64,000 bases of DNA, taken from the NCBI GenBank assembly GCA_963768625.1, contig CAVYIK010000003.1, positions 454,715-518,714 on the forward strand. Reading direction: 5' to 3'. Source of the stretch: an uncultured bacterium (GTDB lineage Bacteria; Patescibacteriota; Minisyncoccia; UBA6257; 2-01-FULL-56-20). Shown here one piece after another: positions 11,868 to 30,261 of the stretch (position 1 is the first letter of the stretch; each line of letters starts with the position of its first letter). Position numbers and translations under genes: made by a program. The notes beneath the pieces are model-generated. The model was given only the letters and a program-made list of their open reading frames with translations. It had not been told where the DNA came from and ran no database searches.

Positions 11868-11939
11868 GCCCCCGTAGTTCAACGGATAGAATATCTCCCT
11901 CCGAAGGAGGTGATTGAGGTTCAATTCCTCACGGGGGCA
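11868..11939 (+). tRNA. tRNA-Arg (anticodon CCG)
   Basis: Hand-folded cloverleaf. Acceptor GCCCCCG/CGGGGGC, D-arm GTTC..GAAT, anticodon stem TCTCC/GGAGG with loop CTCCGAA, T-arm TGAGG-TTCAATT-CCTCA, discriminator A. CCA is not encoded. Confidence 0.9.
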
Positions 11940-12009
11940 CAGGCAAGGCAAAAGGGCTCTGGGAAGAGTACTAAGAAGGGCTCTTCCCAGAGCCCTTTTG
12001 CCTTGCCTG
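11940..12009. repeat. Perfect 29-bp inverted repeat (70-nt hairpin) immediately 3' of tRNA-Arg
   Basis: The arm caggcaaggcaaaagggctctgggaagag (11940-11968) is the exact reverse complement of 11981-12009. The loop is 12 nt. Confidence 0.9.
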
Positions 12010-12137
12010 TGCTATCTCTTGTTGAGAGGAATTGAACGACGGAGGGGGTCGGGGAACCGCTCGCGGTTCCCCGTGTAGGAGGGTTGTTTGGAACCGAGGG
12101 TTCCGAAAGCGCAGGCGGCGAAGCCGCCGAGCAGTGA

Positions 12138-12153
12138 AATTCCTCACGGGGGC
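12138..12153 (+). repeat. Direct repeat of the tRNA-Arg 3' end (att-like scar)
   Basis: aattcctcacgggggc at 12138-12153 is identical to 11923-11938. The upstream ~8 nt are a degenerate copy of the T-arm. An inverted T-loop fragment, gaggaattgaac, lies at about 12027-12038. Confidence 0.8.
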
Positions 12154-12207
12154 TCGTACGTCGGAGAGCACGCAACGATGTTCGAGCAATCTTGCTAGCT
12201 GACCTTG

Positions 12208-12738
12208 CTAACTAAGTAAGTAATCGCTAACTACTTCTGTATATTCTTCAAAGGTGGGGAAGTCTGTTATGTCGAAGTATCCGAATTTATTATTAACAGC
12301 CCTCTTCTTAAGATCTTCGCTCTCGGGGATACCAGTTGTCATCCAACTTCTTATGGTTTGTTCCGTATAACGCCCAGCTTGTATTTCATTAAAAACCCAG
12401 TCCTTTATTTTGTAGGCATAGGCAAGTATGGCATCCGCATGAGATTCGCGGCCGAATCCAACAAACACAACATTTCCTAATACAAAGTTTTCTAATTTTA
12501 GGTCGCGAACACCTTCGGGAGTAATTGCCTTGCCTTCAATGACCACCTCTGATTTAAACGTGCCCTCTTTTAAGTGATTGACAAGGTTAAGCCAGCCTTG
12601 ATTGTCATTGCCGCCAGGACGGAAACGGTCTACCGATAATATCTCAAGGCAGCTATGCTTCTCCTTCATTTTTAGGGCAACTAAAGTTTTGCCCACTCTA
12701 GACATTCCGCCAATCACATATAATTTGTTTTTTTGCAT
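12208..12738 (-). CDS. P-loop NTPase / small-molecule-kinase-like protein
   Basis: Intact 176-aa ORF with Walker A GGMSRVGKT at the N-terminus. AT-richer than the flanks. Family not resolved. Confidence 0.45.
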   Translation of the reverse strand: MQKNKLYVIGGMSRVGKTLVALKMKEKHSCLEILSVDRFRPGGNDNQGWLNLVNHLKEGTFKSEVVIEGKAITPEGVRDLKLENFVLGNVVFVGFGRESHADAILAYAYKIKDWVFNEIQAGRYTEQTIRSWMTTGIPESEDLKKRAVNNKFGYFDITDFPTFEEYTEVVSDYLLS

Positions 12739-12760
12739 ACAGGAGGGTCGTCGCGCTGAC

Positions 12761-12961
12761 CTATGCTTTTTGGATGGCCAACTTGATCTGTTCAGTGAGG
12801 GGAAACCCCTGCTTTGAATAATTCAAAATCTCAAATCCGAGAAGGTTACCCCGTTGGTCATAGTCAGCAAGGTGGCCGTCTTCGCCTTTCGTCCTCGATA
12901 TTTTGCCCTGTTTCAGTCGAACATAAAGGGCATCTGCTTTGGGGTCGTACTTTATTTTCAT
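12761..12961 (-). CDS. DUF2283-family protein (putative antitoxin partner)
   Basis: MKIKYDPKADALYVRL...GNLLGFEILN is the DUF2283 signature. The start is taken at the internal ATG of ORF 12761-12982. Overlaps the upstream DUF4258 gene. Confidence 0.65.
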   Translation of the reverse strand: MKIKYDPKADALYVRLKQGKISRTKGEDGHLADYDQRGNLLGFEILNYSKQGFPLTEQIKLAIQKA

Positions 12962-12972
12962 AATAATTGTAT

Positions 12973-13185
12973 TTATTCCCAATATGTCGTAACGATAATG
13001 GTTTTTTCGGGGCCTTTCATGTTGTATATAACGATCAATGTCCCCTTTTGGTTTCTATGAATAGACCTCCGGAGTCCATTGCCAGCATCTTCTTGTACGC
13101 CCTCGCAGAGCGCTGTCTCAACCTCTTGTTTAGTGATCCCTCTTTCCTTCAGTCGCGCTAAAGCATGGTCAGTGTATCTTATCAC
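12973..13185 (-). CDS. DUF4258-family protein (putative toxin)
   Basis: The 70-aa sequence MIRYTDHALARLKERGITKQEVETAL...TLIVIY...IIVTTYW is the DUF4258 pattern, which is usually paired with DUF2283. Confidence 0.65.
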   Translation of the reverse strand: MIRYTDHALARLKERGITKQEVETALCEGVQEDAGNGLRRSIHRNQKGTLIVIYNMKGPEKTIIVTTYWE

Positions 13186-13237
13186 CGACGCATCATGCCA
13201 TATGGGGCATTAAATCTTCTTTAAGCGCGCCTTGCGG

Positions 13238-13243
13238 TATAAT
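13238..13243 (+). promoter_or_regulatory. -10 box TATAAT 7 nt upstream of the UDG ATG (leaderless-type)
   Basis: gcggTATAATgtcctatATGgac. The first ATG of ORF 13242 lies inside the box, so the ATG at 13251 is preferred. Confidence 0.35.
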
Positions 13244-13250
13244 GTCCTAT

Positions 13251-13883
13251 ATGGACAAACAGGCCGAACTCGCAAAGCTGGAATCCGAACTCATTGCCGA
13301 CGCCGCGCTCCCGCTTCGGGAGTCAAATCTGGTCTTCGGCGAGGGGAACATCAACTGCGACGTTATGTTCATCGGCGAGGGGCCCGGTTACAACGAAGAC
13401 AAATTAAAGCGCCCGTTCGTGGGGCGGGCGGGGCAGCTCCTAGATGACCTCATAAAGGGCATCGGCTGGAAGCGCGAGGACGTCTATATCACGAATATCA
13501 TCAAACGCCGGCCGCCGGAGAACCGCGATCCGCTGCCTCACGAGATAGAGGCATATAAGCCATATCTTACGAAGCAGATAGAGATCATGAATCCAAGGGT
13601 TATTGTCACGCTCGGCCGTTTTTCCATGAACTATTTCCTCCCCGATGCGAAGATCACGCGCGACCACGGGAGGGTGCTCACGATCGGAGGAAGGATTATT
13701 TTCCCGCTCTATCATCCGGCCGCGGCTCTCCGCTCGCCAGTGGAAATGATGGGCGTGCTTAAAGAGGACTTCAAAAAGCTCCCGAAGATATTGAAAGGAG
13801 AGCTTGCTCCCGAAGTGCCTCCGTCTGTCGTGACCGCCGTGGCCAAAAAACCCGCAAAACCGAAGCAGCCCGGCTTGTTTTGA
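13251..13883 (+). CDS. Uracil-DNA glycosylase, family 4
   Basis: Motifs GEGNINCDVMFIGEGPGYNED, PFVGRAGQLL, ITNIIKRRPPENR and LYHPAAALR are characteristic of family-4 UDG. Confidence 0.8.
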   Translation: MDKQAELAKLESELIADAALPLRESNLVFGEGNINCDVMFIGEGPGYNEDKLKRPFVGRAGQLLDDLIKGIGWKREDVYITNIIKRRPPENRDPLPHEIEAYKPYLTKQIEIMNPRVIVTLGRFSMNYFLPDAKITRDHGRVLTIGGRIIFPLYHPAAALRSPVEMMGVLKEDFKKLPKILKGELAPEVPPSVVTAVAKKPAKPKQPGLF

Positions 13884-16745: not shown

Positions 16746-18482
16746 ATGGCGAAGGTCTCAAACCAATCCGTTGCCGAACTACTCCGCGAGATCGGGGAAT
16801 ACCTCGCCATGCAGAACATTCCGTTCAAGCCGCGGGCATATGAAAAAGCCGCAGGGGTGGTGGAGGCGCTTGAAGAGGAGATTGCCGATATCTATGCGCG
16901 CGGCGGCATAAAGGCGCTTGAAGAGATCCCGGGCGTCGGCGTCTCCATTGCGGAAAAGGTAGAGGAATTCATACGGACGGGCAAGGTGAAATATTATGAA
17001 GGCCTCAAAAAGAAGACACCAGTGGACCTCGGCAGCTTGTCGCGCGTGGAAGGGCTTGGGCCGAAATCGATAAAGAAATTGTATCAAACGCTGGGCGTAG
17101 GGAACCTCGCCGACCTTGAAAAGGCGGCGAAGGCGGGGAAGATCGCGAAGCTCGAGGGGTTCGGCGCGAAGAGCGAAGAGAAGATATTGAAGGGCATTGG
17201 CTTCGCCAAGAAATCCGGCAACCGCTTTGTGCTCGGCTTTATGATGCCGCGCATCCGCGACATTGAAGCGAGCCTGAAGAAACTGCCGGGTGTGCAGAAA
17301 GCGGTCGTCGCGGGCTCCGCGCGGCGCCGGAAGGAAACGATCGGCGACGTGGACATCCTCGTCGTCTCCCCAAAACCAAAGGCGGTCATGGACTTTTTTG
17401 TTTCCATGCCGGAGGTTATTTCCGTGATCGCGCACGGAGAAACAAAATCATCGGTGAAAATAAAACCCGGGTTGAACGTTGACCTCCGTGTGGTGCCCGA
17501 AGAATCCTACGGCGCAGCCATGAATTATTTCACGGGCTCAAAGGACCACAACGTTGCCCTGCGGCAAATCGCGGTAACGAAAGGATGGAAGCTGAACGAA
17601 TACGGACTTTTTAAAGTGGTGGGCGGGCGCGAGACGGTGATCGCGGGCAGGAGCGAGGAGGAGGTCTACAAAGCGTTCGGCATGGATTATATAGAACCGG
17701 AATTGCGTGAGGAGACCGGCGAGATCGAAGCCGCCCGGACGCACCGGTTGCCGAAGATCGTGGGCTATGGCGACCTTGAGGGCGACCTCCAGGTGCAGAC
17801 GAGCTGGACGGACGGCTCGGATTCTATTGAAGCGATGGCGAAGGCAGCCATGGCGCACGGCCTCAAATATATGGCAGTCACCGACCATACGAAGCGGCTT
17901 GCGATGACGCACGGCCTGGATGAAAAGCGCATCCTGCAACAAATGGCGGAGATAGACAAGCTCAATAAAAAATTTGCCGGCAAGTTCAAAATATTGAAGG
18001 GGAGCGAGTGCGACATTCTGAAGGACGGCACGCTGGACCTCCCAGACGCCGTGCTTTCAAAGCTGGACGTTGTGGGCGCCTCGGTTCATTCATTCTTCAA
18101 TCTCTCCCGCGCCGAGCAGACCGAGCGAATAAAGCGCGCAATGGCAAACCCGAACGTGGACATCCTTTTCCATCCGACCGGCCGCATCATCAACCGCCGC
18201 GAGGCCTATGACGTAGATATGGAGGCGATCATCGCACATGCCAAAAAGACAGGGATAATCCTTGAAATAGACGCTTTCCCGGACCGCGCGGACCTTAAGG
18301 ACGAATACATCCGGAAGTGCGTTGAGGCGGGCGTCAAAATGTCCATTGATTCCGACGCCCATTCGCCGGCGCACTTTGCCTACCTTGAATATGGCATTGC
18401 GCAAGCCCGCCGCGGCTGGGCCACCCGCCACGATATCATAAACGCCTGGCCGCTCGAAAAGATGTTACAATTTTTGAAATGA
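16746..18482 (+). CDS. Family X DNA polymerase with C-terminal PHP phosphoesterase domain (PolX)
   Basis: Intact 578-aa ORF. HhH motifs (IPGVGVSIAEK, VEGLGPKSIKK), nucleotidyltransferase GSARRRKETIGDVDILV, and PHP histidines (DHTKRL...SVHS...DSDAH). Confidence 0.85.
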   Translation: MAKVSNQSVAELLREIGEYLAMQNIPFKPRAYEKAAGVVEALEEEIADIYARGGIKALEEIPGVGVSIAEKVEEFIRTGKVKYYEGLKKKTPVDLGSLSRVEGLGPKSIKKLYQTLGVGNLADLEKAAKAGKIAKLEGFGAKSEEKILKGIGFAKKSGNRFVLGFMMPRIRDIEASLKKLPGVQKAVVAGSARRRKETIGDVDILVVSPKPKAVMDFFVSMPEVISVIAHGETKSSVKIKPGLNVDLRVVPEESYGAAMNYFTGSKDHNVALRQIAVTKGWKLNEYGLFKVVGGRETVIAGRSEEEVYKAFGMDYIEPELREETGEIEAARTHRLPKIVGYGDLEGDLQVQTSWTDGSDSIEAMAKAAMAHGLKYMAVTDHTKRLAMTHGLDEKRILQQMAEIDKLNKKFAGKFKILKGSECDILKDGTLDLPDAVLSKLDVVGASVHSFFNLSRAEQTERIKRAMANPNVDILFHPTGRIINRREAYDVDMEAIIAHAKKTGIILEIDAFPDRADLKDEYIRKCVEAGVKMSIDSDAHSPAHFAYLEYGIAQARRGWATRHDIINAWPLEKMLQFLK

Positions 18483-18994
18483 CCCCTCCGCGCGAACCCA
18501 TGTCCGTTGAAAAACCTCCTACCAGGAAGCAGGTAGTGGCGGGCTTTGTCGTCTATCGCCGGACGAGCGACGGGATAAAATTTCTCCTCCTCTACCGCCG
18601 CGGCAATTATTGGAACTTTCCGAAGGGCCACTTTGAGCCGGGCGAGAGGAGCATTGAGACCGCCCTCCGGGAGCTTGAGGAGGAAACCGGCATCAAGAAA
18701 ACAGAGGTCCACATCGCGCCGAACTTCCGGGCATACGAAAGGTTCTATTTCAAGATCGGGAACCAGGGCATCTACGACACCGTTATCCTCTTTTTGGCCG
18801 AAACGCATAAGGCCGAGATAACGATCCGCCCGCGCGAGCATAGCGGCTACGGATGGTTCCTTTACCACGACGCAGTGAACGTCATTGGCAAGAAATACGG
18901 CGATACGCGCAAGGTATTGCGTCAGGCGCAGGATTTCCTCCGCGCGCGAAGCAGGCAATACCACCGGCCGCAGCGTCCCCCGCAGCGTCCTTGA
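18479..18994 (+). CDS. NUDIX hydrolase (Ap4A-hydrolase-like)
   Basis: Canonical Nudix box GHFEPGERSIETALRELEEETGI. Start overlaps the PolX stop. Confidence 0.8.
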   Translation: MTPPREPMSVEKPPTRKQVVAGFVVYRRTSDGIKFLLLYRRGNYWNFPKGHFEPGERSIETALRELEEETGIKKTEVHIAPNFRAYERFYFKIGNQGIYDTVILFLAETHKAEITIRPREHSGYGWFLYHDAVNVIGKKYGDTRKVLRQAQDFLRARSRQYHRPQRPPQRP

Positions 18995-20160: not shown

Positions 20161-20169
20161 TGCTATAAT
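20161..20169 (+). promoter_or_regulatory. Extended -10 promoter (TGCTATAAT) about 10 nt upstream of ATG 20180
   Basis: cttGCTATAATgattgaaaccATG. The first ATG (20168) lies inside the box. Confidence 0.4.
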
Positions 20170-20179
20170 GATTGAAACC

Positions 20180-20758
20180 ATGGAAGAAGCCCCCGTAACC
20201 CATCCCGGCGTCCCCGCCGACACCTATCATACGCTCGGGCCGAAGACCCTTTGGATATTTATTCTGGAGCGCGTCCAGACCTCCGCAGTACTTCTGATTG
20301 TTTCAATCGTACTTTTCGCGGTCAAAGACCAATCGTTCCTTAAAAAGATCCCCGTTGTAGGCGACGTAACCGGCTATATGAATATAATCAGCTGGAGCGT
20401 ATTCGGTCTTTTCGTCATCGCTTTTTTGATTACGTTCCTCGTTGCATGGCTCATCTATGTGAACTACAAATTCTGCCTTGGTGAAGATGCGCTGAGGATC
20501 AAGCGCGGGATTTTTAATAAGGAGGAGATCGCGATGCCTTATCGGCAGATCCAGGATGTGGATATTGAACGCGACCTTGAGTTTCAGATGCTCGGATTGA
20601 GCAAGCTCGTTATTCTCACCGCCGGCGAACAGATGGAAAAATCGGAAGAAAGCGAATCGGAGGGGGTTTTGCCGGCGGTCGACAAGGACCTCGCCGAGTG
20701 GCTCCAGGCGGAACTTTTGAAGCGCACGAACGTGCAGAAGGTGGTGGAGGAGAAATAG
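20180..20758 (+). CDS. Membrane protein with bacterial PH domain (bPH_2, YdbS/YdbT-like)
   Basis: Two TM helices followed by YKFCLGEDALRIKRGIFNKEEIAMPYRQIQDVDIERDLEFQMLGLSKLVILTAG, which is the bPH_2 pattern. Confidence 0.65.
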   Translation: MEEAPVTHPGVPADTYHTLGPKTLWIFILERVQTSAVLLIVSIVLFAVKDQSFLKKIPVVGDVTGYMNIISWSVFGLFVIAFLITFLVAWLIYVNYKFCLGEDALRIKRGIFNKEEIAMPYRQIQDVDIERDLEFQMLGLSKLVILTAGEQMEKSEESESEGVLPAVDKDLAEWLQAELLKRTNVQKVVEEK

Positions 20759-20781: not shown

Positions 20782-21087
20782 GGGGACGCACTGGTATTGA
20801 TGGGGATGCGGGATGGGTTTGCGGGCCGATGGCAACGCCGTAAGCGTTGCATCAACTAACTGCCAATCAAAAGGCGGCTCCAGCGTTCGCTTACGCGTAA
20901 CGTTGGGATCGGCGGATCCGGGTTCCTTGGGTCCATGTCCGGTCTTATATAAGGGGACTAGCGCGGGGTGGACGATTCTAAACCGCGCGCGAAAAACAGA
21001 ATCACGTTGCTAGTGTTCCACTAGACACGCCCGTAGACGGCCCATTCTCAGTATCTTCAGACGAGGGTTCGATTCCCTCCGTCTCCA
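20782..21087 (+). ncRNA. ssrA: tmRNA (SsrA)
   Basis: 5' GGGGACGCACUGGUAUUGAUGGGG. Acceptor GGGGACG pairs with CGTCTCC (21080-21086) including the G3:U pair. T-arm GAGGGTTCGATTCCCTC, discriminator A. Tag reading frame 20862-20900 encodes ANQKAAPAFAYA*. Confidence 0.85.
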
Positions 21088-22600
21088 CACCCCGTGAGTT
21101 AGAGATAGCAAAATGCTCAAAAACCCTTAAAGGAAGGGCTAACGGAGCGGTTCTAAATCCAATTCCTCGGTCATAGGAAAGCACACCCTCAAAAACGAGG
21201 TTCATTACAAGGTTCTTATCGCTCAAGTTGCCGTATTTCCACTGGCTATATGGGTTTTCTAGATAATTAAACACCATTCGCAAGGCGGTTCTAAACTCAA
21301 TTTTAGACTTCTTCGCCGGATCGTTATTTTCTTTCAGCTTTTCTTCCCGTGTTGCAAATTCTTCAATCTGCTTTTCATACTCAAGTCGGACACGATCATT
21401 ACTTGCCCGCTTCGCCAATTTAACGAGGTTTTTAATTTCATCCTCAATCCGCACAATTTCTCCCAATTCCTTCTTTTCGCTTGCGGCACGGTTTGCGATG
21501 CGCTTTCCCCATTGTTCATAAAGCATCGCTTCGCTGATCTTCAAGACGAGTGGCTTCGGCTTTATCTCTCGCAAGATGGTCTCAAATTGCCCTTCGATAA
21601 CACCAATCGGAATACTTTTTGTGTGTTCAGGGCAAGCAGTATTGTTGCAACGATAATATCCCCGCTTGTAGCCCTTCGTTTTTGTTGTATAGGAAGCCGT
21701 ATATTGACGACCGCAATTTCCGCACGCTACGAGTGTATGCCGCAGCGGAAAATCCTCTCGTATGTCCTTTCGTGTCCGCACCGGCCTACGTCCATCGAGC
21801 TTCGCGCAAATCTTTTGGAAGGTCGCCAAATCTATAAGCGGTTCGTGATGTCCTTGTCTCCGCGACACTTCCCAAGGCGTATATTCGATGAAGCCCGCGT
21901 ATATTGGGAGGCGGCTAAAAAGACGGCTCACCAACTGGAAATGGATTTTGTCTTTGCCGCAAAACTTTTCCGATTCGAGATAATGTAACACGTCGCCCTG
22001 CGTTTCAAACCGATCTACTGCAAACCCTTCGAGCGCAGTTTTAATTATCGCCGCTTCCGGTTCGTAAGGCGTTAAGAGCTTTCCATGTCCGGCTGTTTTG
22101 ACGTGTCGAAAGCCAGGTGGCGGACAAAACGGCCAGTAGCCAAGCTCCGTTCGAGCTTTTTGTTTCTGTATAACCTGCCGACGATTTAGTGCGCGATGGA
22201 GTTCAGCGTTGCCAGCCATAATAACCTCAACGTATTTCCCTTCTGGGCTATCATCAAAATCAAAATTTAAGCACTCTAGCTCCGTTTTACGATAATGAAA
22301 TGCCGCTCGCAATTTAATATGCATCTCAACATCTCGCGCCAAGCGTGAGATGTCGTCAAAAATGACGATATAGTTTTTATGAGGATGCTTGTCTATATGT
22401 TTAAGCAATTCCGTCATAGCGGGGCGACGCATAAAATCACCACCACCAGTAAAACTATCTCTAAAAACCTTCTCGATTTCATAGTTTTTCTGTTCGCAAC
22501 GAAGGCGGCATCGTTGCTCTTGGCTATCGAGGCCATGCCCTTCGGTTTTCTGCCGCTCGGATGAAACGCGGCAATATATTAATGCCTTTAGTTGGCTCAT
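21002..22600 (-). CDS. Large serine recombinase (integrase)
   Basis: Intact 532-aa ORF. Resolvase catalytic domain ALIYCRVSSERQ...DDISRLARD, a recombinase domain, zinc ribbon CGNCGRQY...YYRCNNTACPEH, and a coiled-coil. The last ~29 codons are antisense to the tmRNA 3' end. Confidence 0.85.
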   Translation of the reverse strand: MSQLKALIYCRVSSERQKTEGHGLDSQEQRCRLRCEQKNYEIEKVFRDSFTGGGDFMRRPAMTELLKHIDKHPHKNYIVIFDDISRLARDVEMHIKLRAAFHYRKTELECLNFDFDDSPEGKYVEVIMAGNAELHRALNRRQVIQKQKARTELGYWPFCPPPGFRHVKTAGHGKLLTPYEPEAAIIKTALEGFAVDRFETQGDVLHYLESEKFCGKDKIHFQLVSRLFSRLPIYAGFIEYTPWEVSRRQGHHEPLIDLATFQKICAKLDGRRPVRTRKDIREDFPLRHTLVACGNCGRQYTASYTTKTKGYKRGYYRCNNTACPEHTKSIPIGVIEGQFETILREIKPKPLVLKISEAMLYEQWGKRIANRAASEKKELGEIVRIEDEIKNLVKLAKRASNDRVRLEYEKQIEEFATREEKLKENNDPAKKSKIEFRTALRMVFNYLENPYSQWKYGNLSDKNLVMNLVFEGVLSYDRGIGFRTAPLALPLRVFEHFAISNSRGVETEGIEPSSEDTENGPSTGVSSGTLAT

Positions 22601-22758
22601 AGCTTTTTATGATTGGTTTTTTTATTCATTCGCCGTGCTTTGAGCGCATTCGCCGCCCAGTCGCCCATCTTCCCGCTCTTGCGTCGTGCCTCAACAGAAG
22701 CCAGCCCGCCACGCTTACCCATTTCCCGCATAACTTTGCTGATCGTCTTTTTGTCCAT
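22597..22758 (-). CDS. Small basic protein (53 aa) translationally coupled to the recombinase; possible directionality/DNA-binding factor
   Basis: Hand translation: MDKKTISKVMREMGKRGGLASVEARRKSGKMGDWAANALKARRMNKKTNHKKL. Its stop overlaps the recombinase ATG (ATGA). No clear RBS. Confidence 0.35.
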   Translation of the reverse strand: MDKKTISKVMREMGKRGGLASVEARRKSGKMGDWAANALKARRMNKKTNHKKL

Positions 22759-22987
22759 AGTTATTAATACAATCTAACCGCTTAATACCATTGTACCAAA
22801 CGCAATCATTCGCGCAAGTCGCCGGAATAGGATAGGTTTCCTGCCTCGTCAAAATACCTGTTAAGGACTTTCTCTAGGATGGGATGAAGCGCGTCGCGCA
22901 ATTCAAGAAGCTCCTGATCGGAGAGTTGATTTTCTGCATCTATTGTTCTTAGTTGTTCTGGCGATAACACTATTCACGGCCCGTGAA

Positions 22988-23025
22988 TTAAAAAGGACAC
23001 GAACGCTGAACGCGCCCGTGTCCTT
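22988..23025 (-). terminator. Terminator-like hairpin (minus strand) upstream of the recombinase module
   Basis: 9-bp stem aaggacacg/cgtgtcctt, followed on the minus strand by TTTTTAATT. Confidence 0.4.
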
Positions 23026-23027
23026 AA

Positions 23028-23057
23028 TTGTCAATTTCTACTTGTTGCCCCTATATT
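23028..23057 (+). promoter_or_regulatory. Candidate sigma70-type promoter (TTGTCA-18-TATATT) for the long leader of gene 23316
   Basis: aaTTGTCAatttctacttgttgccccTATATTatac. Confidence 0.35.
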
Positions 23058-23188
23058 ATACACCAACTATGTTTAGAAAGCCAGCGCTTAGAGGGATTCC
23101 TTGTTAAACGCCTCATTCGGCTCTATCATCAGGTTATAACTTAATAAAAGTCGCCTAAACCTTGCAGTAATGTGGGGCATGGCGCAAA

Positions 23189-23285
23189 AACGTTTCAGCG
23201 TATAAAGCTCCTAGTCAGAGCACGCTGAAACGTCATAGTCCGAAAGGATTATGGGTTCGCAAGAACCGCTGGCTGGGAGCTTTAT
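23189..23285 (+). promoter_or_regulatory. Structured RNA leader: 16-bp helix enclosing two GNRA-capped hairpins, plus a competing 11-bp helix (candidate riboswitch or cis-regulator)
   Basis: Helix B is 23203-23218 with 23269-23284 (16 bp, 2 G-U). Hairpin 23234-23253 has an 8-bp stem and GAAA loop. Hairpin 23254-23267 has a 5-bp stem and GCAA loop. Helix A is 23190-23200 with 23223-23233 (11 bp). The G-U pairs and GNRA loops are valid only on the plus strand. Confidence 0.5.
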
Positions 23286-23315
23286 GTTTCCGGCTCAATA
23301 AAATCCAATAAAGAC

Positions 23316-24269
23316 GTGATTAAGAAAATACTTATAATCTCATGTATTCTTGGGTTTGCAGGCTATCATATCGCTGGGGCTACATCAGGCGCGTGCTCGT
23401 CTCATGGAGGCGTAAATTGTTCGGCAATAGGTGTATATGCAACTTGCAACGATTGGACTCAAAGCAGTGTATTTTACACGGACGTGGTCGAATGCAAAAA
23501 TTCTGTTAGTTGTTATTATCCAATAGCGGCAGGATGCGTAAGCCAAGACCAATATAATCTCCTACTGAACCAAGAAGCTCAGGCGACCAATGTGAGCAAT
23601 TGGCGAGGATTTGGATATAGTGCGGATGAGATAAACCAAAAAGTAGCAGAAATATCTCAGGAGTACGATCAGAAACTTTCTCAATGCCAAACTCAAATAC
23701 AGGGATATGAACTTCAAAAAACTGCTTATCAGGAATGTCTTAATAATCAACTCAAACAGTCAGCGCAACTATTTAATCCAACGCCACTCGTCGCTCCACA
23801 AGCAACCAGCCAAAACAGTTCGAGTATAGAAGCGTACGTAAATGCGGAGATGCAAAAAGAATGCGTTGGGCGAGATCCAAATAGCTTCTATGACACACAG
23901 CGCCCAATAAAAGGGTGCAGTTGCAATGCTGGGTATATTATGAATCACAGCAATCAATGCATTCTAGTAACTCCGACCTCCACAACGACCATCTCCGCGC
24001 CGCTTCCTGCCACGACTCCCTCTACGCCTCCTGCTATACAAGGTTTTACTATTACTGCCAGTCTTTCTTTGGGAAGTTCAGGGTCAAACGTGGTTAGTCT
24101 ACAAAAGCTTTTAGAAGGGCACGGGTTCCTAGTCATGCCATCAGGGGTGTTCGAGGGATATTTTGGCGGCCTTACAAAACAAGCGCTCGTCGCCTTCCAA
24201 GCCTCTATAGGACTACCGGCAACGGGGAATTGCGGCCCAATGACCAGATCGGCGATAAACGGCCAATAA
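23316..24269 (+). CDS. Secreted Cys-rich protein with C-terminal peptidoglycan-binding domain (PG_binding_1-like)
   Basis: Signal-like N-terminus MIKKILIISCILGFAGYHIAGA. Many Cys residues and a Thr/Pro linker. C-terminal SSGSNVVSLQKLLEGHGFL...GYFGGLTKQALVAFQASIGLPATG is the PGBD pattern. GTG start. Confidence 0.6.
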   Translation: MIKKILIISCILGFAGYHIAGATSGACSSHGGVNCSAIGVYATCNDWTQSSVFYTDVVECKNSVSCYYPIAAGCVSQDQYNLLLNQEAQATNVSNWRGFGYSADEINQKVAEISQEYDQKLSQCQTQIQGYELQKTAYQECLNNQLKQSAQLFNPTPLVAPQATSQNSSSIEAYVNAEMQKECVGRDPNSFYDTQRPIKGCSCNAGYIMNHSNQCILVTPTSTTTISAPLPATTPSTPPAIQGFTITASLSLGSSGSNVVSLQKLLEGHGFLVMPSGVFEGYFGGLTKQALVAFQASIGLPATGNCGPMTRSAINGQ

Positions 24270-24275
24270 GTTTTC

Positions 24276-24938
24276 ATGGAAAACAAAACCCTTTCCCATC
24301 TGAACTCAAAAGTGTGGTACAGACTTTTGAAGGTAATTTTTATTGTTGCGTTCTTTATTGTTTTGGCGGCCTATAATTTCATCATTTTTTCTAGCGGGAT
24401 TAGGCAGCTCGACCAAAATAGAACAACCATTAAATGCAATGTTTTCGGTAACGCATCGTTTAGCCCCGCGAGCATCAACATTTCCATTGATCCATCTTAC
24501 TTCAGCAATGGACAGTTCAACTATATAGGTTTCTTTCACGGCTATAACGACTATGAAACGATGGCGATATTGAAGCGCTGCGGGAATTTTACTCCGGTGG
24601 TCGCCAATGCCGACAGCTACGACGAACAGGAATTACAAGATATTATCTACGACAATGGGTTCACCGGTATCACTAATTGGACGCCCCAACAGGTTGATAC
24701 CATCAACACCGCATTTGAAATTTACCAACAACGAACGAAGGACTCTTTTGAAGGCGACAATCAAAAAGCCCAATACTTAGATTTCAGTTCCACAATGTTT
24801 GAGGTTCAGCCGGTATTCGCCTACAACCAATTTCGAGAACTTTTCGTTATCGGCAATCTGCTAATCCTACTCGTCTTTGAAGCGATGAGAAGGATATTCT
24901 ATTACGTAATTTTAGGGAGTTTAGGGCCTGCGAAATAG
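24276..24938 (+). CDS. Hypothetical membrane protein (N- and C-terminal TM helices)
   Basis: Intact 220-aa AT-rich ORF. TM helices VIFIVAFFIVLAAYNFIIF and LFVIGNLLILLVF. No family recognised. Confidence 0.45.
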   Translation: MENKTLSHLNSKVWYRLLKVIFIVAFFIVLAAYNFIIFSSGIRQLDQNRTTIKCNVFGNASFSPASINISIDPSYFSNGQFNYIGFFHGYNDYETMAILKRCGNFTPVVANADSYDEQELQDIIYDNGFTGITNWTPQQVDTINTAFEIYQQRTKDSFEGDNQKAQYLDFSSTMFEVQPVFAYNQFRELFVIGNLLILLVFEAMRRIFYYVILGSLGPAK

Positions 24939-24942
24939 CCGA

Positions 24943-25410
24943 TCACGAATACTCCGGCCGGACAAGATGCTTGCGCATGTTTCTTACATAATCTTCGCCC
25001 TCTAAATCTTGGAGCATTCGCAATACCCGTTGTATTTTTTCTTGATCTTCAGGGCAGTTACCAAACATAATCGGGATTGGTAGTTTATTATTGGCATTCT
25101 GTTCTTGTCTCGCCCTATCGGTCAATCCAAGCAGCTTAAAGGCGAGGAGAAGCTCACTTACTCGATCCTGTGGCTTGTCTTTAATGTCCTCAACGAGTGA
25201 TTTTACGACCAAATCAGCATCCAGCCCGTTGGCCGTCAGAGATTCGCTGATAGTCCTTTGAATGTTAGGTTTTGTTAGGTTTTCGCTCCCTATAGCCCGC
25301 GCCGTAGCCCTTTTCGCTGGCTTGTAGACGCGATTAGCCGCTTCAGTAGCATTTCCCCTTTCAATGTACTCCTGAATGAACTGGCTTTGCTTTGAGGTTA
25401 ATTTCCGCAT
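24943..25410 (-). CDS. Terminase small subunit-like HTH protein (Terminase_2-type), copy 1
   Basis: LTSKQSQFIQEYIERGNATEAANRVYKPAKRATARAIGSENLTKPNIQ matches the TerS N-terminal HTH signature. Confidence 0.65.
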   Translation of the reverse strand: MRKLTSKQSQFIQEYIERGNATEAANRVYKPAKRATARAIGSENLTKPNIQRTISESLTANGLDADLVVKSLVEDIKDKPQDRVSELLLAFKLLGLTDRARQEQNANNKLPIPIMFGNCPEDQEKIQRVLRMLQDLEGEDYVRNMRKHLVRPEYS

Positions 25411-25426
25411 AACGCTTCCATTTCGT

Positions 25427-25870
25427 TTAATCGCTTTTTTGAATTTCCTCTGCGCGGGTGGCGATCATCATATCTCCTATAACCGTTCCATGTTTAACGC
25501 CATTTTGCTCAGCGATTTCCGGCGCAACGACAATAATTTTTGTTACCTGAGGCTTATCTTGAAGTTGGGGTTTCGATTTATCGACGAAATAGCCAGCCCG
25601 ATCAAGAATATCCCGACTGGCGTTTAGTCGGACAGCCTCATTCTTTGCCCTCTGAGAGAGCCGATATACCTCAGCCATCGCATCAGCCGCACTTGCCTCT
25701 AAATACGCCTTAATCGTAGGTTTCCGTAGGTTCTCTGCCCCTATGGCGTGCGCTGTATTGCGGTTCTTGGCCTTATAGGCGCGATCTGTCGCTTCGGTAG
25801 CATTTCCCGTTTCTAAATATGACGCAACGAATTTAGTTTGTTTTTTCGTTAATTCTGCCCTCATATTCAA
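25427..25870 (-). CDS. Terminase small subunit-like HTH protein (Terminase_2-type), copy 2
   Basis: LTKKQTKFVASYLETGNATEATDRAYKAKNRNTAHAIGAENLRKPTIK. Tandem paralogue of 24943-25410. Confidence 0.65.
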   Translation of the reverse strand: MNMRAELTKKQTKFVASYLETGNATEATDRAYKAKNRNTAHAIGAENLRKPTIKAYLEASAADAMAEVYRLSQRAKNEAVRLNASRDILDRAGYFVDKSKPQLQDKPQVTKIIVVAPEIAEQNGVKHGTVIGDMMIATRAEEIQKSD

Positions 25871-26086
25871 ATCCTCTCATGTGTACCAGGACGCCCCATT
25901 TTATTGGCTTATTTCAGCCATTTTTCGGCTCTGTAGGATTTCTCCCCATCGGAAAATATAGGATTCAAGAGAGTTCCAACTTTTCTGAACCATGTCCACA
26001 TCGCGGGAATTGAACTCGAACTCGGGAGTAGGCGGCTTTACAGATTTTCACCTTCCTGTTATATAAGTTCCTAGGAGGGGCCAGAC

Positions 26087-26317
26087 ATGATCGTGAGGTT
26101 AGATGTTTCGAGCGATGAGGAAGAAGAGATTCTGCGCCTTGCTACTGAAGATGAGATCTCGGTTGACGAGCTTTTTAGGAGACTTGCGGCGGCAGAGGAT
26201 GCCCGTCGGCATATCGATAGACCGCCTTTCTCGGGGGAAGTGCGGGCGAGATGTTCAAGAGAGCTCTGTTCCGAGACGCAGCAAAGGCAGAACGCGGTTG
26301 GAGCGGAAGAGTCGTAA
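26087..26317 (+). CDS. Ribbon-helix-helix (CopG-like) small protein
   Basis: Strong RBS ctAGGAGGGGccagacATG. MIVRLDVSSDEEEEILRLATEDEISVDELFRRL fits the strand-helix-helix pattern. Confidence 0.45.
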   Translation: MIVRLDVSSDEEEEILRLATEDEISVDELFRRLAAAEDARRHIDRPPFSGEVRARCSRELCSETQQRQNAVGAEES

Positions 26318-26337
26318 AGGGTTTGTATTCGCTTGAC

Positions 26338-26374
26338 GGCCGGGTCCGCGTCTCTGGGTCCGGCCCTTTTTATT
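26338..26374 (+). terminator. Rho-independent terminator after the RHH gene
   Basis: GC-rich stem ggccgggtcc...gggtccggcc followed by TTTTTATTT. Confidence 0.6.
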
Positions 26375-26407
26375 TCCGATAACGCACCATGGACTCTACT
26401 TGCAGCT

Positions 26408-27427
26408 TCAATCGTCGTACACGTGCCGTGGCCAGCGGGAGCGGGAATATGATTCTATCTCGCTCAGCTTCAGCGAAGTGGAAATGTTCCCCGTTCTCAC
26501 GTAGAACTGTTCATTATTGTCGGCTTTGAGATAAACCGGCCGGGGGCTCGCGAGCACTTGGACAATGCAGAGATCGTGACTATCTAATTTGTGGAACCAT
26601 AGTTTGATCAAGCTGCGGAATTCCGGACCGATCATGCTGTTGAATGCCTGAGTAAAATGGTTTTCAAAGCCATCCGCGTCTTTTCTTTGAAGCGTTTGAT
26701 AGTCGTCCTCAAGGCCTAGGGGCGTCCGCGAGTCGTTTACCCCCAGGATCAAGTGCCCGCCCCTTGAGTTCAAAAAGGCAGCAACCGTTTTCATCCCCGC
26801 CTTTTCGATCTCGCGGTTTGCTTGGCCGGTTTTATGGTCAAACCGCAAAGACGATTTAAACTCCAGCCTGTCGTGCTCATTTTCCGAGAGGAGCTGCCGG
26901 AGGTCAGGCGCTCCCTTGAATGTGCTCTCGTGAGTATTGTTCTCGCGCCGAACGAGGTTGATAAAATTCCCCGGTCGCGAGATGCAAGTTAAGTTGAAAG
27001 ATGATGTGCCGGTCTCTGCGTGGATGGATCCATAATGAAAAAGTTTTCCCAGAAGATTTGATGAAGCAGTAAACGTCGTAGCATTGTTCACCCGAAATGC
27101 CCCTTCCTTCTTTAAGAAAATGCCCCGCGCGTAAGCAATCGAACCGGGGCGGATAACGTAGTACTCGTAATACCAAGAAAGGAACGCATATACGGTGACC
27201 GCAAATTGCGCTCCGGAGAGGAATAATATTTTTGCGATCTGGTAGGAAAGAAAGCTTGAAAAAGAAAGCTGCGTGTAAAGTTCATACTTTACATTGCCGA
27301 GCATGGCGGCTCCGAGATAAAGCAAAAATCCCGCAATCTCAATGATTGCGAATTTCCATACGAGAACAACGGGGCTCCGCTTGATCATGCGGCCCTCGTC
27401 CCATCCATGGACGCCCGGGGTTTTCAT
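26408..27427 (-). CDS. Membrane bPH_2-like module fused to an AlbA_2 (Schlafen-type putative nucleic-acid-binding) domain
   Basis: Intact 339-aa ORF. Three or more N-terminal TM helices and YYVIRPGSIAYARGIFLKKEGAFRVNN (bPH_2-like). The C-terminal ENEHDRLEFKSSLRFD...FLNSRGGHLILGVND...FYVRTGN is the AlbA_2 signature. Confidence 0.6.
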   Translation of the reverse strand: MKTPGVHGWDEGRMIKRSPVVLVWKFAIIEIAGFLLYLGAAMLGNVKYELYTQLSFSSFLSYQIAKILFLSGAQFAVTVYAFLSWYYEYYVIRPGSIAYARGIFLKKEGAFRVNNATTFTASSNLLGKLFHYGSIHAETGTSSFNLTCISRPGNFINLVRRENNTHESTFKGAPDLRQLLSENEHDRLEFKSSLRFDHKTGQANREIEKAGMKTVAAFLNSRGGHLILGVNDSRTPLGLEDDYQTLQRKDADGFENHFTQAFNSMIGPEFRSLIKLWFHKLDSHDLCIVQVLASPRPVYLKADNNEQFYVRTGNISTSLKLSEIESYSRSRWPRHVYDD

Positions 27428-27469
27428 AGATTGAGCATATCAAAGGTGGATGAACTTGGACAAGCTTTG

Positions 27470-27478
27470 TGGTAGAAT
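27470..27478 (+). promoter_or_regulatory. Extended -10 promoter (TGGTAGAAT) upstream of small ORF 27497
   Basis: ttgTGGTAGAATgg. The identical 9-mer recurs at 61905-61913. Confidence 0.35.
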
Positions 27479-27496
27479 GGGTTTGGGCGTAAGTCC

Positions 27497-27664
27497 ATGA
27501 TCGGAAGCTTTATCCTCGCATTTATTATCTGCGCTATCCCGATCGCTGCCGCTCTCTACGGCTTAACGCTCCTTACGAGTTCCATCGTTTTCAATTGGAT
27601 TTTTGTAATAATCGTATCTGCGGTCCTCGCGGTTGTCTGGACGGTGAAGTCGGAGATGAGCTAG
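27497..27664 (+). CDS. Small two-TM membrane protein (55 aa)
   Basis: Hand translation: MIGSFILAFIICAIPIAAALYGLTLLTSSIVFNWIFVIIVSAVLAVVWTVKSEMS. Below the ORF-track cutoff. Confidence 0.4.
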   Translation: MIGSFILAFIICAIPIAAALYGLTLLTSSIVFNWIFVIIVSAVLAVVWTVKSEMS

Positions 27665-27739
27665 CGTCGCGTGAGAGGTTGTGCGGAAAAAAATGACCCA
27701 GAGCGAACTCTGGGTCTTAGGGTGTCTCCTTCCGAACGG

Positions 27740-28021
27740 TCACCGTGGCTGGTGTTGCGCAAGGGCTTTTTTCTGCTTCGCCTCGATCTTTCCCATATGC
27801 GCAAGCCTTCTCTCCAGGTATCCCGCGAGCTTAACGCTCGGGCACTTCGTGACGTCCTTTAGGGTTCCAAGCTCGGCCACGGTATTGCTGAACTTGGCCG
27901 CCCTCCTGTAGGTCTCGTGCCATCGATTGTAGAGCCGCGCCCTCTCCTTCTCGTCTCTTGCGCCCTCATAGGACGCATGGGCGTTTAGGACTTCGTCGAC
28001 AAGGATCTTCACCGGTATCAC
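27740..28021 (-). CDS. Hypothetical helical protein (93 aa from the GTG start)
   Basis: Part of ORF 27740-28168. The start is moved to GTG 28021 because of the strong RBS cAGGAGGGttacGTG, and because a near-consensus plus-strand promoter occupies the ORF's upstream part. Confidence 0.4.
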   Translation of the reverse strand: MIPVKILVDEVLNAHASYEGARDEKERARLYNRWHETYRRAAKFSNTVAELGTLKDVTKCPSVKLAGYLERRLAHMGKIEAKQKKALAQHQPR

Positions 28022-28105
28022 GTAACCCTCCTGACGTGAATTTGCAGCAGCACTTATCCTATGATTTTCATATCTGGGTGTCAAACCTTCATTGGCGTGC
28101 GCCCA

Positions 28106-28134
28106 TTGACAAAGTGCATTTTGTATGCTAAATT
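28106..28134 (+). promoter_or_regulatory. Near-consensus sigma70 promoter TTGACA-17-TAAATT with TGc extension
   Basis: caTTGACAaagtgcattttgtaTGcTAAATTgt. Lies about 75 nt upstream of ORF 28211. Confidence 0.55.
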
Positions 28135-28210
28135 GTATTCGTGCACTCGTGTGGCATGTTCTTTCCAAATCTTATCCGTTCCCAATGAGGGGCGGAGAAA
28201 CAGGTGAATT

Positions 28211-28708
28211 GTGGAAAAGGCGGAAAAGCGTGTGATGATGGGCTTCGCCATTCTCGTACTTGCGGTCATCGCTGGCGCCGTGCTCATAGAAGTTACCCAG
28301 TACTACGTAAATAAGTACGATGCCGAGTATGCGAGAGTTGCCGCGACGAAGAAGGACTACGAGATGCGGATCAAGGCCGCGATGGACGTGACCAAGAAAC
28401 CGTGCGGTAACCACTACCAATTCGTCGAGCAGCCGTTCACGAGTGGAAAGTTCGCGCTGGTCTTTAATGGATACGTTATCGGCGAGGACTTTCCCTCGGA
28501 AGAAATAATCAAGTTCCACGAAGAGTGCGACAAAGAGGGCGGGTGCACTCTTTGGCGGACATACAAGGAAAACCTTCCGGATTATCGATTCGCGGATTTC
28601 GGTCCGAGCCCGACGATAAAAGCGTGCCCGGCGGACACGCGCAAATCACTTAACCACAAGCATCACCGTCAGAAAAGGCATGGATTTCTCCATGCCTTTC
28701 TTTTTTAA
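28211..28708 (+). CDS. Membrane-anchored hypothetical protein
   Basis: 165-aa ORF with a GTG start (ATG 28235 is the alternative). N-terminal TM helix MMGFAILVLAVIAGAVLIEV, then a Cys-containing soluble domain. No family recognised. Confidence 0.45.
   Translation: MEKAEKRVMMGFAILVLAVIAGAVLIEVTQYYVNKYDAEYARVAATKKDYEMRIKAAMDVTKKPCGNHYQFVEQPFTSGKFALVFNGYVIGEDFPSEEIIKFHEECDKEGGCTLWRTYKENLPDYRFADFGPSPTIKACPADTRKSLNHKHHRQKRHGFLHAFLF
28674..28706. terminator. Bidirectional terminator hairpin between convergent genes
   Basis: 11-bp stem aaaggcatgga/tccatgccttt with loop tttc. Followed by TTTTTT on the plus strand and TTTTCT on the minus strand. Confidence 0.7.
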
Positions 28709-29675: not shown

Positions 29676-30113
29676 TTATCCTGCGGCGCGCATTTCCCGC
29701 TCATGGGAGCGCTTTTTTAGCGCCTCGCGCTGGTCGGATTTCTTCTTTGAGCGCCCGAGGCCGAGCGCGAGCTTTATAAAACCCCTTTGGAGGTAGGCAC
29801 GAAGCGGAACAAGCGTCCGTCCTTTTTCCTGGAGCGCGCCCGTCAGGCGTTTTATCTCTTCCTTTGTAAGCAGGAGCCGCCGCGAGCGATCCTCTTCGTA
29901 TCCTGCCGGAGTGTTCTTCGGTTGGTACGGCGGGATGTGGGAGTTTACGAGCCATGCCTCGCCGCCGCGGATAAGAACGCGGGCGCCCGCGATCTGGAAG
30001 CGGCCGCCCTTCGCACTTTTCACCTCATGACCCAAGAGCTCAATGCCGGCGTTGTAGGTTTCCTCGATGTTGTAATCGAATCCCGCCCGTTTGTTTTCCG
30101 CGATGTTCTCCAT
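29676..30113 (-). CDS. smpB: SsrA-binding protein SmpB
   Basis: The 145-aa sequence contains NKRAGFDYNIEETYNAGIELLGHEVKS...LLLTKEEI...GRTLVPL...G.IKLALGLGRSKK, which is typical of SmpB. Confidence 0.9.
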   Translation of the reverse strand: MENIAENKRAGFDYNIEETYNAGIELLGHEVKSAKGGRFQIAGARVLIRGGEAWLVNSHIPPYQPKNTPAGYEEDRSRRLLLTKEEIKRLTGALQEKGRTLVPLRAYLQRGFIKLALGLGRSKKKSDQREALKKRSHEREMRAAG

Positions 30114-30128: not shown

Positions 30129-30170
30129 AAGAAAACCCGCTTTGGCGGGTTGTGGGTTTTGCGGTATCGT

Positions 30171-30261
30171 AAAGAAAAAGGGCGGCAGGAGTTGCGCCAC
30201 CGGGGACGGAGCCGAGAGCTCCGGTAGAGTTCCCCGGCTTCTCCCACCGCCAGTTGCAACC
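30171..30261 (-). ncRNA. Candidate ~90-nt hairpin sRNA between smpB and argS
   Basis: Minus-strand promoter TTGCAA-16-TATAGT (30268-30295). A long imperfect hairpin spans 30181-30251 (11 + 7 + 6 bp). Two positions are G-U on the minus strand but C-A mismatches on the plus strand. Followed on the minus strand by CTTTTTCTTT. Confidence 0.35.

Follow-up and report, generated by a model that had tools for sequence, protein, structure and literature searches.

An uncultured bacterium of the Candidate Phyla Radiation (CPR; Patescibacteriota, Minisyncoccia; assembly GCA_963768625.1) very probably carries an integrative mobile element at the extreme 3' end of ssrA, the gene for transfer-messenger RNA (tmRNA). 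Within the 64,000-nucleotide stretch of contig CAVYIK010000003.1 analysed here (the window), the element spans positions 21089-25999, 4,911 bp from core to core, and would have been inserted by a large serine recombinase (LSR) through an attachment site, attP, that lies inside the integrase gene (int). A sequence-only reading of this DNA had proposed an LSR element at this place in a CPR genome, without a long direct repeat, and this is borne out by empty and differently loaded sites in relatives. Related loci and proteins are designated by L and P numbers.

Insertion at the 3' end of ssrA

The ssrA gene lies at 20782-21088 (plus strand). ARAGORN reports the tag ANQKAAPAFAYA followed by a stop, and Rfam model RF00023 matches over its full length (model positions 1-374) with 115.2 bits (gathering score 47); the tRNA-like domain, tag frame and pseudoknot-rich body all fit the family model. 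The covariance-model search that the sequence-only reading had called for accepts the gene that it had placed at 20782-21087, with the end now set at 21088. The 3' strand of the acceptor stem, CGTCTCC, is at 21080-21086 (plus), the discriminator A is at 21087, and CCA is not encoded. Gene order in the left flank (ClpB, MFS, PolX, NUDIX, L20, IF3, a bPH_2 protein and the tmRNA) is syntenic in L003 and L004, with the bPH_2 protein (20168-20758) directly upstream of ssrA.

The int open reading frame (ORF; 21002-22600, minus strand, 532 aa) is intact and runs antisense into the tmRNA 3' end for 87 nt (21002-21088), one more than the 86 nt counted earlier. Residues 1-504 (21089-22600, minus) are encoded by the element, the last 28 residues (21005-21088, minus) are translated from antisense tmRNA, and the stop codon (21002-21004, minus) lies in host sequence. 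The product is a large serine recombinase, in agreement with the first identification of the ORF, and is predicted to have attP x attB activity. In the profile searches that had been suggested for it, Pfam detects Resolvase (PF00239, 5.9e-22) and, above its threshold, Zn_ribbon_recom (PF13408, 27.7 bits; cut-off 25.3), and PHROG 95, annotated as integrase, matches at 1.9e-57. R11, V12, S13 and S14 are invariant in 30 int homologues, and the catalytic R11/S13 motif is retained in alignment A3. The AlphaFold 2 (AF2) model of the integrated form contains long paired helices (350-398 and 402-425), in keeping with a zinc ribbon and coiled coil, and Foldseek matches AlphaFold models of int and a homologue to the solved integrase-att complexes 9dxh, 9iu2, 9tep and 4kis. 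Identity to the closest annotated phage and plasmid LSRs is only 22-28%.

Attachment sites and the core

In the left junction, attL (21062-21112), the tmRNA T-arm and acceptor end serve as the B half-site; then come the core TCCAC (21084-21088) and, within the int coding region, a P half-site (21089-21112). The right junction, attR (25972-26024), is composed of a P' half-site (25972-25994), the core TCCAC (25995-25999) and a B' half-site (26000-26024, ATCGCGGGAATTGAACTCGAACTCG). Within the core, TCC closes the 3' strand of the acceptor stem, A is the discriminator and C is one further base. Only TCCAC(A) is common to the two junctions, at 21084-21088(9) and 25995-25999(26000), and the site thus has no long direct repeat. 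A repeat search found neither a second copy of the tmRNA 3' end, whose absence had been noted before, nor any long repeat; the shared core amounts to 5-6 bp.

Empty sites in relatives, the comparison proposed earlier for defining attL and attR, confine the exchange to the 5-bp TCCAC. The sequence following the core at attL is kept in all occupied relatives and is missing from empty sites, and its P half-site matches the P arm of attP in the circular L085. In L010 the sequence to the left of the core at attL does not differ from the empty sites L008 and L006, and the right side of its outer attR aligns with the post-tmRNA sequence of the same two loci (87-89% over 117 nt); joined together, these two parts form the continuous attB of L008 and L006, with the switch exactly at TCCAC. 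The attR flank of L004 equals the post-tmRNA sequence in the empty L044 and L011, and the window attR flank (ATCGCGGGAATTGAAC...) shares its motif, equally spaced, with the empty L034 and L024 (ATGCCCGGAATCGAAC...). A tblastx comparison gives a short conserved block far from int, at 25898-26017, which matches L003 and L004 at varying distance from their integrases. The reconstructed junctions read ...GGGTTCGATTCCCTCCGTCTCCACATCGCGGGAATTGAACTC... for attB and ...TTTTCTGAACCATGTCCACACCCCGTGAGTTAGAG... for attP, and the full reconstructed sites are CCGTCTCCACATCGCGGGAATTG (attB) and AACCATGTCCACACCCCGTGAG (attP).

Because the TCCAC core is identical in attB and attP, the sequence of the mature tmRNA is the same after integration, and what is new is the 3' trailer and terminator context. 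The suggestion that the element now encodes some of the functional 3' end of the tmRNA is therefore not upheld.

We note two further features of tmRNA ends in relatives. In L005 the five bases that follow the core (ACCCC, within 11009-11016) are those that start the window P arm, and beyond them the two sequences part; the match may be coincidental or may be a scar. In L033 the tmRNA 3' end recurs in inverted orientation (GGTGGAGATGGGCGGAATCGAACCGC, ~11316-11393) ~45 nt past the gene, after a hairpin and at the contig end.

Partition of the integrase gene

A displaced int 3' end is present at the right end of the element (25901-25999, minus). It encodes the native tail VDMVQKSWNSLESYIFRWGEILQSRKMAEISQ followed by a stop, and is in frame with int when the two are joined at the core, such that the reconstructed integrase is a 536-aa protein ending in VDMVQKSWNSLESYIFRWGEILQSRKMAEISQ. 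The displaced tail matches the tails of the attP-form homologues P0012 and P0022, which are encoded on two circular contigs with no tmRNA beside int, and free circular attP forms are thereby seen for relatives (L085, 8,509 nt with a 30-nt terminal overlap; L086, 12,376 nt with a 55-nt overlap). Both circles have int with the native tail, and in both the DNA of the int 3' end consists of a P arm, GTGGA and a P' arm, the P arm being the window sequence just past the tmRNA and the P' arm the window sequence at 25972-25994. Since the int end of the circles equals the P arm of the window attL plus the P' arm of attR, attP lies inside the int coding region and the gene is partitioned on integration, which removes the last 32 int codons and leaves them at attR.

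Both kinds of tail are seen among homologues. Nearly all of those aligned end in LPLRVFEHFAxSKSQGVExGGIEPP, the antisense translation of a T-arm and acceptor stem, and a minority end in SNSQGVDVVKNNWNALESFIFDWGERL, which matches the minus-strand translation of 25901-26017; among the best 120 homologues, most have the antisense T-arm peptide (GVEMGGIEPP-like) and ~16 the native tail. Homologous tail fragments are located at the far end of at least 13 other islands, and the GTGGA core is invariant in all P' fragments (19/19). Pairwise identity over tail codons 9-25 is 0.56, 0.65 and 0.41 at codon positions 1, 2 and 3; third positions are the most variable, which suggests selection on the peptide rather than on the DNA site. 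In AF2 models, which for the two forms were built on different alignments, the native form has helices at 493-503, 505-514 and 516-539 (pLDDT, the local model confidence, is 81-90 as far as residue 530 and drops to 75 over the final ten), and residues 494-532 of the integrated form have a pLDDT of ~30 and no secondary structure. Integration thus swaps a conserved, probably structured C-terminal module for a host-templated, probably disordered tail.

Very probably, the LSR recombined attP, in the 3' coding end of int, with an attB that runs from the T-arm and acceptor end of the tmRNA through TCCAC into the ~25 bp that follow. Exchange within TCCAC would produce no duplication and would keep the mature tmRNA while replacing its trailer and terminator context, and the int body is fused in frame to antisense tmRNA, from which it acquires a 28-residue tail that is predicted to be disordered. 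No terminator-like site is predicted on the plus strand from the tmRNA end to ~22140, so that transcription of ssrA may run antisense into int. Either the tail swap or this read-through could modulate integrase activity.

Related elements in other genomes

Species-representative genomes were scanned with the bPH_2 protein that precedes ssrA, and loci with readable downstream sequence were kept. Five of the 33 bPH_2-tmRNA loci are occupied by the int family and the rest are empty; presence/absence polymorphism, and an empty site equal to the left part of attL plus the right part of attR, are thus seen between species. The relatives are annotated as Minisyncoccia, Paceibacterota or Parcubacteria (CPR). 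The LSRs of L003 and L004 are 69-74% identical to int and overlap the tmRNA end likewise, and their cargo is different.

The wider family comprises ~1000 int homologues in metagenomes, of which the closest are 60-74% identical. Among 80 metagenomic loci with relatives at 40-72% identity, int overlaps a tmRNA 3' end antisense in 21 and a tRNA 3' end in 24 (45/80 together), and many of the remainder are cut by a contig end and have the same tail signature. The targeted tRNAs are mainly tRNA-Ala, with some Leu, Tyr, Ile and Glu. Relatives at 37-50% identity similarly show antisense int overlap at tRNA-Ala (L096, L099, L101, L113, L138, L145, L149, L150 and others) and at tRNAs for Leu (L154, L160, L166), Tyr (L152, L158, L171), Ile (L116, L125), Glu (L104) and Ser (L090). 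The displaced tails of the tRNA-Ala elements L096 and L113 carry the same GTGGA core, and the acceptor end that tmRNA and tRNA-Ala have in common (...CTCCA) agrees with the core being invariant. The LSR clade to which int belongs is large and uncharacterised, comes from CPR-type metagenomes and has its members at tRNA and tmRNA (t(m)RNA) 3' ends.

With displaced tails as end markers, 16 integrated elements (4.9-10.6 kb) could be bounded besides the two free circles, and sizes across the family range from 5 to 12 kb. The 88 cargo ORFs surveyed in 18 elements include methyltransferases, Z1, KAP NTPase, PD-(D/E)XK and ABC-3C-type domains, as well as a trypsin-like peptidase, Schlafen/AlbA_2, MazG, DUF3800, a kinase and one Prim-Pol; the circular L086 has Prim-Pol/AAA_25. 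No capsid, portal, large-terminase or tail family is found for these 88 ORFs among the families listed (the 25 commonest per library). A single-protein scan of IMG/VR with int gave no match and an alignment scan only five distant ones (29-40% identity), which suggests that the family is not represented among recognised viral contigs.

Mobility of the element

Several observations weigh against the interpretation of the window unit as a serine-integrase element with these boundaries and an int-embedded attP. Recombinase (PF07508) scores 17.7 bits on int, below the Pfam cut-off of 21.1; precomputed PF07508 matches are present in many int homologues, and the AF2 fold aligns with full-length integrases. 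The attB site has a dyad in which the T-arm faces an inverted T-arm-like motif, but this symmetry is only partial (14/25 positions, around a centre picked after inspection), attP has none around the same centre (7/25), and the B' arm is unlike the T-arm in some relatives; as the dyad is not general among relatives, we take it as a property of the window site and not as a rule. The difference between the native and integrated AF2 tails is no more than indicative, given the different alignments behind the models. The reconstructed native 536-aa integrase is absent, by exact look-up, from a collection of 15 billion proteins. Pfam and PHROG searches of the element proteins recognise no directionality factor and no replication or transfer gene. 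Finally, the 26.0-28.7 kb stretch to the right of the element, considered below, has no homologue in any related locus compared.

Some of these points would be expected of an immobilised remnant, that is, a decayed element or a domesticated recombinase fixed beside ssrA, which we regard as unlikely. The excised form is absent from databases, there are no replication or transfer genes, the integrated-form integrase is without the conserved C-terminal helix, and decayed kin exist: orphan tails past the tmRNA without an integrase in L012 (12141-12233) and L026 (11666-11749) are remnants of lost elements, and L010 has two displaced int tails (17605-17688 and 18578-18661) ~1 kb apart that point to a tandem or decayed second element. 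In the window, however, int has an intact ORF and retains its catalytic motif, and both att sites are intact, such that rejoining them exactly restores the frame. A strong break in G+C content, from 0.561 in the left flank to 0.452 over 21090-25994, suggests recent arrival, and the family has both presence/absence polymorphism and free circles. We thus favour a mobile element, which on its sequence is best described as a small integrative element.

Cargo of the element

Two small ORFs are located upstream of int and are candidates for a regulator or for the directionality factor that excision would require. The first (22597-22758, minus) encodes a basic 53-aa product, its stop overlaps the int start (ATGA), and counterparts 74-92% identical to it precede int in L003, L004, L010, L039, L093 and L094. 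The second (22806-22970, minus) encodes an acidic, helical 54-aa product and is conserved in close relatives, in the circular L085 and in the more distant L117, L128, L129 and L167. Neither has a Pfam or PHROG match. A divergent control region follows at 22971-23151, where a consensus scan gives promoter-like sequences at 23028-23057 and 23101-23129 (plus) and a 14-bp hairpin is present at 22993-23025; its control function is putative.

To the right of this region a LOOT RNA is followed by a gene for a 317-aa secreted protein (23316-24269, plus), directly downstream of LOOT, with a signal-like N-terminal segment and a C-terminal PG_binding_1 domain (PF01471, 2e-12). Next to it are an ORF for a 220-aa membrane protein with no family match (24276-24938, plus) and two paralogous genes for small-terminase-like (TerS-like) proteins, of 155 aa (24943-25410, minus; PF03592, 7.4e-15, residues 4-85; PHROG 51) and 147 aa (25427-25870, minus; PF03592, 2.1e-11, residues 7-68; PHROG 51 and 2538). 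No capsid, portal, large terminase or tail gene is found in the window element with Pfam or PHROG, and it does not qualify as a prophage. The earlier description of its genes as phage-like or hypothetical holds for the two TerS-like N-terminal matches and the PG-binding domain, and not in the sense of virion genes. An inovirus was considered in view of the small size and the secreted and membrane proteins, but the window element has no Zot/pI-type ATPase or rolling-circle initiator. PADLOC finds no defence system in the window cargo or in the 26-28.7 kb genes.

A small element with an integrase, two Terminase_2 matches and no virion or replication genes could be a phage satellite, which would rely on its TerS-like proteins to be packaged by a helper phage infecting the CPR host. 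TerS-like genes are also found in the P0003 and L004 elements. The two window proteins match the N-terminal, DNA-binding part of the terminase model only, however, and just 3 of the 88 cargo ORFs of the 18 elements are TerS-like, most cargo being methylases, nucleases, NTPases and other defence-like functions. With no known helper phage and only the five distant relatives in IMG/VR, a satellite lifestyle is possible for the window copy, but we consider it decidedly improbable as an account of the element.

The region from 26.0 to 28.7 kb

The sequence-only reading had drawn the right boundary at a terminator near 28.7 kb, and a hairpin with a T-run is indeed present there (28674-28699). The region between attR and this terminator (26000-28704) contains a 76-aa ORF, a 339-aa protein with bPH_2 and Schlafen/AlbA_2 domains and small ORFs; a Pfam and PHROG scan of the ORFs gave no match. 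A single LSR island reaching from the tmRNA end to the terminator would account for the intermediate G+C content (0.513 over 26001-28704), for the lack of a homologue in related loci, and for the return of synteny with L005, the closest empty relative, only at 28705, where the nucleoside deoxyribosyltransferase gene begins. The block does lie below both flanks (0.561 and 0.543) in G+C content, as had been remarked, but it is not uniform and shows two steps, 0.452 and 0.513. The displaced int fragment and core at 25901-25999 fall well inside such an island, the sequence immediately to their right is B'-like, resembling the post-tmRNA sequence of empty sites, and there is no second core or tail fragment near 28.7 kb; moreover, the LSR would excise the core-to-core unit only. 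A single island of this extent is therefore very unlikely, and the element is taken to stop at attR (25995-25999), where the displaced int fragment meets the empty-site-like flank. By sequence comparison, the 26.0-28.7 kb stretch appears to be separate, variable, non-syntenic DNA, and 28.7 kb to mark the resumption of synteny and not the end of the element.

Past the tmRNA, the gene order of L005 starts with a different gene, for a 331-aa product, and continues with those for the nucleoside deoxyribosyltransferase, SmpB and an ArgS-like protein. The smpB gene of the window is located at 29676-30113 (minus; PF01668), as first reported, but the proposal that the insertion split ssrA from an smpB operon does not stand: ssrA (plus) and smpB (minus) are convergent, and so were never a single operon, and in the empty L005 they are already ~1.5 kb apart with two genes between them. 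We also note a 24-nt inverted repeat (26363-26386 and 30160-30183, 88% complementary) that encloses the DNA running from the AlbA_2 gene to smpB. The genes of this block are oriented as in L005, with no sign of inversion.

Repeated tRNA-like sequences can cause misjoins in metagenome assemblies, but an assembly chimera at this conserved sequence is barely credible, as an independently assembled 11.5-kb Logan contig spans both junctions identically and the same architecture is seen in dozens of unrelated assemblies.

The LOOT RNA

The LOOT RNA of the window (RF03000; 23152-23267, plus) scores 93.8 bits against a gathering score of 46.4 over model positions 1-121, and its fold has a z-score of -7.95. 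Of the 17 delineated elements 14 have LOOT, both circular forms among them, and the RNA thus appears to be a core component of the mobile element. Beyond the window, the copies are in L003 (8992-9105), L004 (9371-9491), L010 (13632-13768), L039 (5186-5301), L085 (510-627), L086 (4858-4978), L093 (4664-4782), L095 (9490-9610), L096 (4842-4963), L109 (5302-5426), L119 (3338-3453), L137 (5621-5752) and L161 (8552-8680). In the window and the 13 other elements the gene 3' of LOOT, which has the same orientation, invariably codes for a protein whose N-terminus is a signal-peptide or transmembrane segment. This gene starts close downstream of LOOT, with a slight overlap in three elements, and the exported proteins are mostly non-homologous to one another. 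The constant position of an exported-protein gene after LOOT suggests that the RNA may be its leader or regulator. The literature searched gives no published function or biological context for LOOT; the copies described here resemble the known motif in being full-length matches above gathering, and differ in being a conserved part of a mobile element family.

An extended proposal, which we advance tentatively and consider doubtful, is that the intragenic attP is a built-in state switch. The free form, with its helical C-terminus, would serve integration, and the integrated form, with its antisense-tmRNA tail and antisense transcription from the strong ssrA promoter, would be altered in activity, stability or directionality without a classical repressor. 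With LOOT as regulatory RNA, this would be a new minimal kind of element, specialised for t(m)RNA ends and widespread in CPR.

Other features of the window

A tRNA-Arg gene (11868-11940) precedes a ~70-nt perfect hairpin, beyond which an inverted copy of the T-arm of this tRNA lies at 12026-12038 (region 11868-12100). Beside it, within 12000-13500, is a patch of low G+C content (0.46-0.48) with no integrase. Two overlapping ORFs at 12761-12982 and 12973-13185 (minus) resemble a toxin-antitoxin pair by eye.

Relationship to known integrative systems

The enzyme architecture (Resolvase, a probable recombinase domain, zinc ribbon and coiled coil) is that of phiC31, Bxb1, Listeria A118, TP901-1 and SPbeta/skin, and serine-integrase elements likewise have short att sites with a minimal core and no long repeat. 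They target a protein-coding gene or intergenic site, whereas here the target is a tmRNA or tRNA end, and the window element differs further in having attP within int, a size of 5 kb and no virion genes. Islander-type tyrosine islands share the target class and the 3' sublocation, leave the target gene intact and have int beside the target; unlike them, the element uses a serine and not a tyrosine integrase, and has no displaced t(m)RNA 3' repeat but only 5 shared bp. Use of t(m)RNA genes by serine integrases was recorded in 14/297 cases by Mageeney et al. 2020 (PMC7192596), who termed it previously unreported and in need of proof.

Intragenic attP sites have parallels in two other systems. 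In SSV1, attP lies in the integrase ORF, and integration into a tRNA-type gene splits int, which excision restores. The partition of the gene by an attP in the integrase ORF is of this type, but SSV1 Int is a tyrosine integrase divided into two large parts, whereas here a serine integrase has its last 32 codons swapped for an in-frame host tail. In the mycobacteriophages that Broussard and colleagues reportedly described in 2013, attP is said to lie in the repressor gene, where integration alters the C-terminus with an experimentally shown effect on stability. That integration-dependent immunity similarly writes the integration state into a protein C-terminus, but involves a repressor and a tyrosine integrase; here it is the integrase itself that is altered. 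The concept of partitioning by an attP in int (SSV1-type) is listed in a review (PMC8371274).

At ~5 kb, with an integrase, small-terminase-like genes and no virion genes, the element also resembles phage-inducible chromosomal islands and their minimalist counterparts (PICI/PICMI). It differs from these in having no primase or replicase in 21089-25999 and no known regulators or helper, and most members of the family are without a TerS-like gene. Neither this clade nor a serine integrase with an intragenic attP, nor elements of this kind in CPR, is described in the literature searched. New, then, are a serine-integrase clade dedicated to t(m)RNA genes, an int-embedded attP and a conserved LOOT RNA, which are variants of known principles and not a new category.

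Serine integrases are workhorses of genome engineering and are generally believed to spare tRNA and tmRNA genes. A large natural clade acting on the near-universal T-arm and acceptor end would alter that picture and supply integrases with an attB in almost any bacterium. An attP that rewrites int would provide a simple, testable regulatory principle undescribed for serine integrases, and the element family gives the orphan LOOT RNA a biological context. We know of no genetic systems for CPR/Patescibacteria, and the family offers a first concrete handle on their mobile elements and, possibly, genetic tools.

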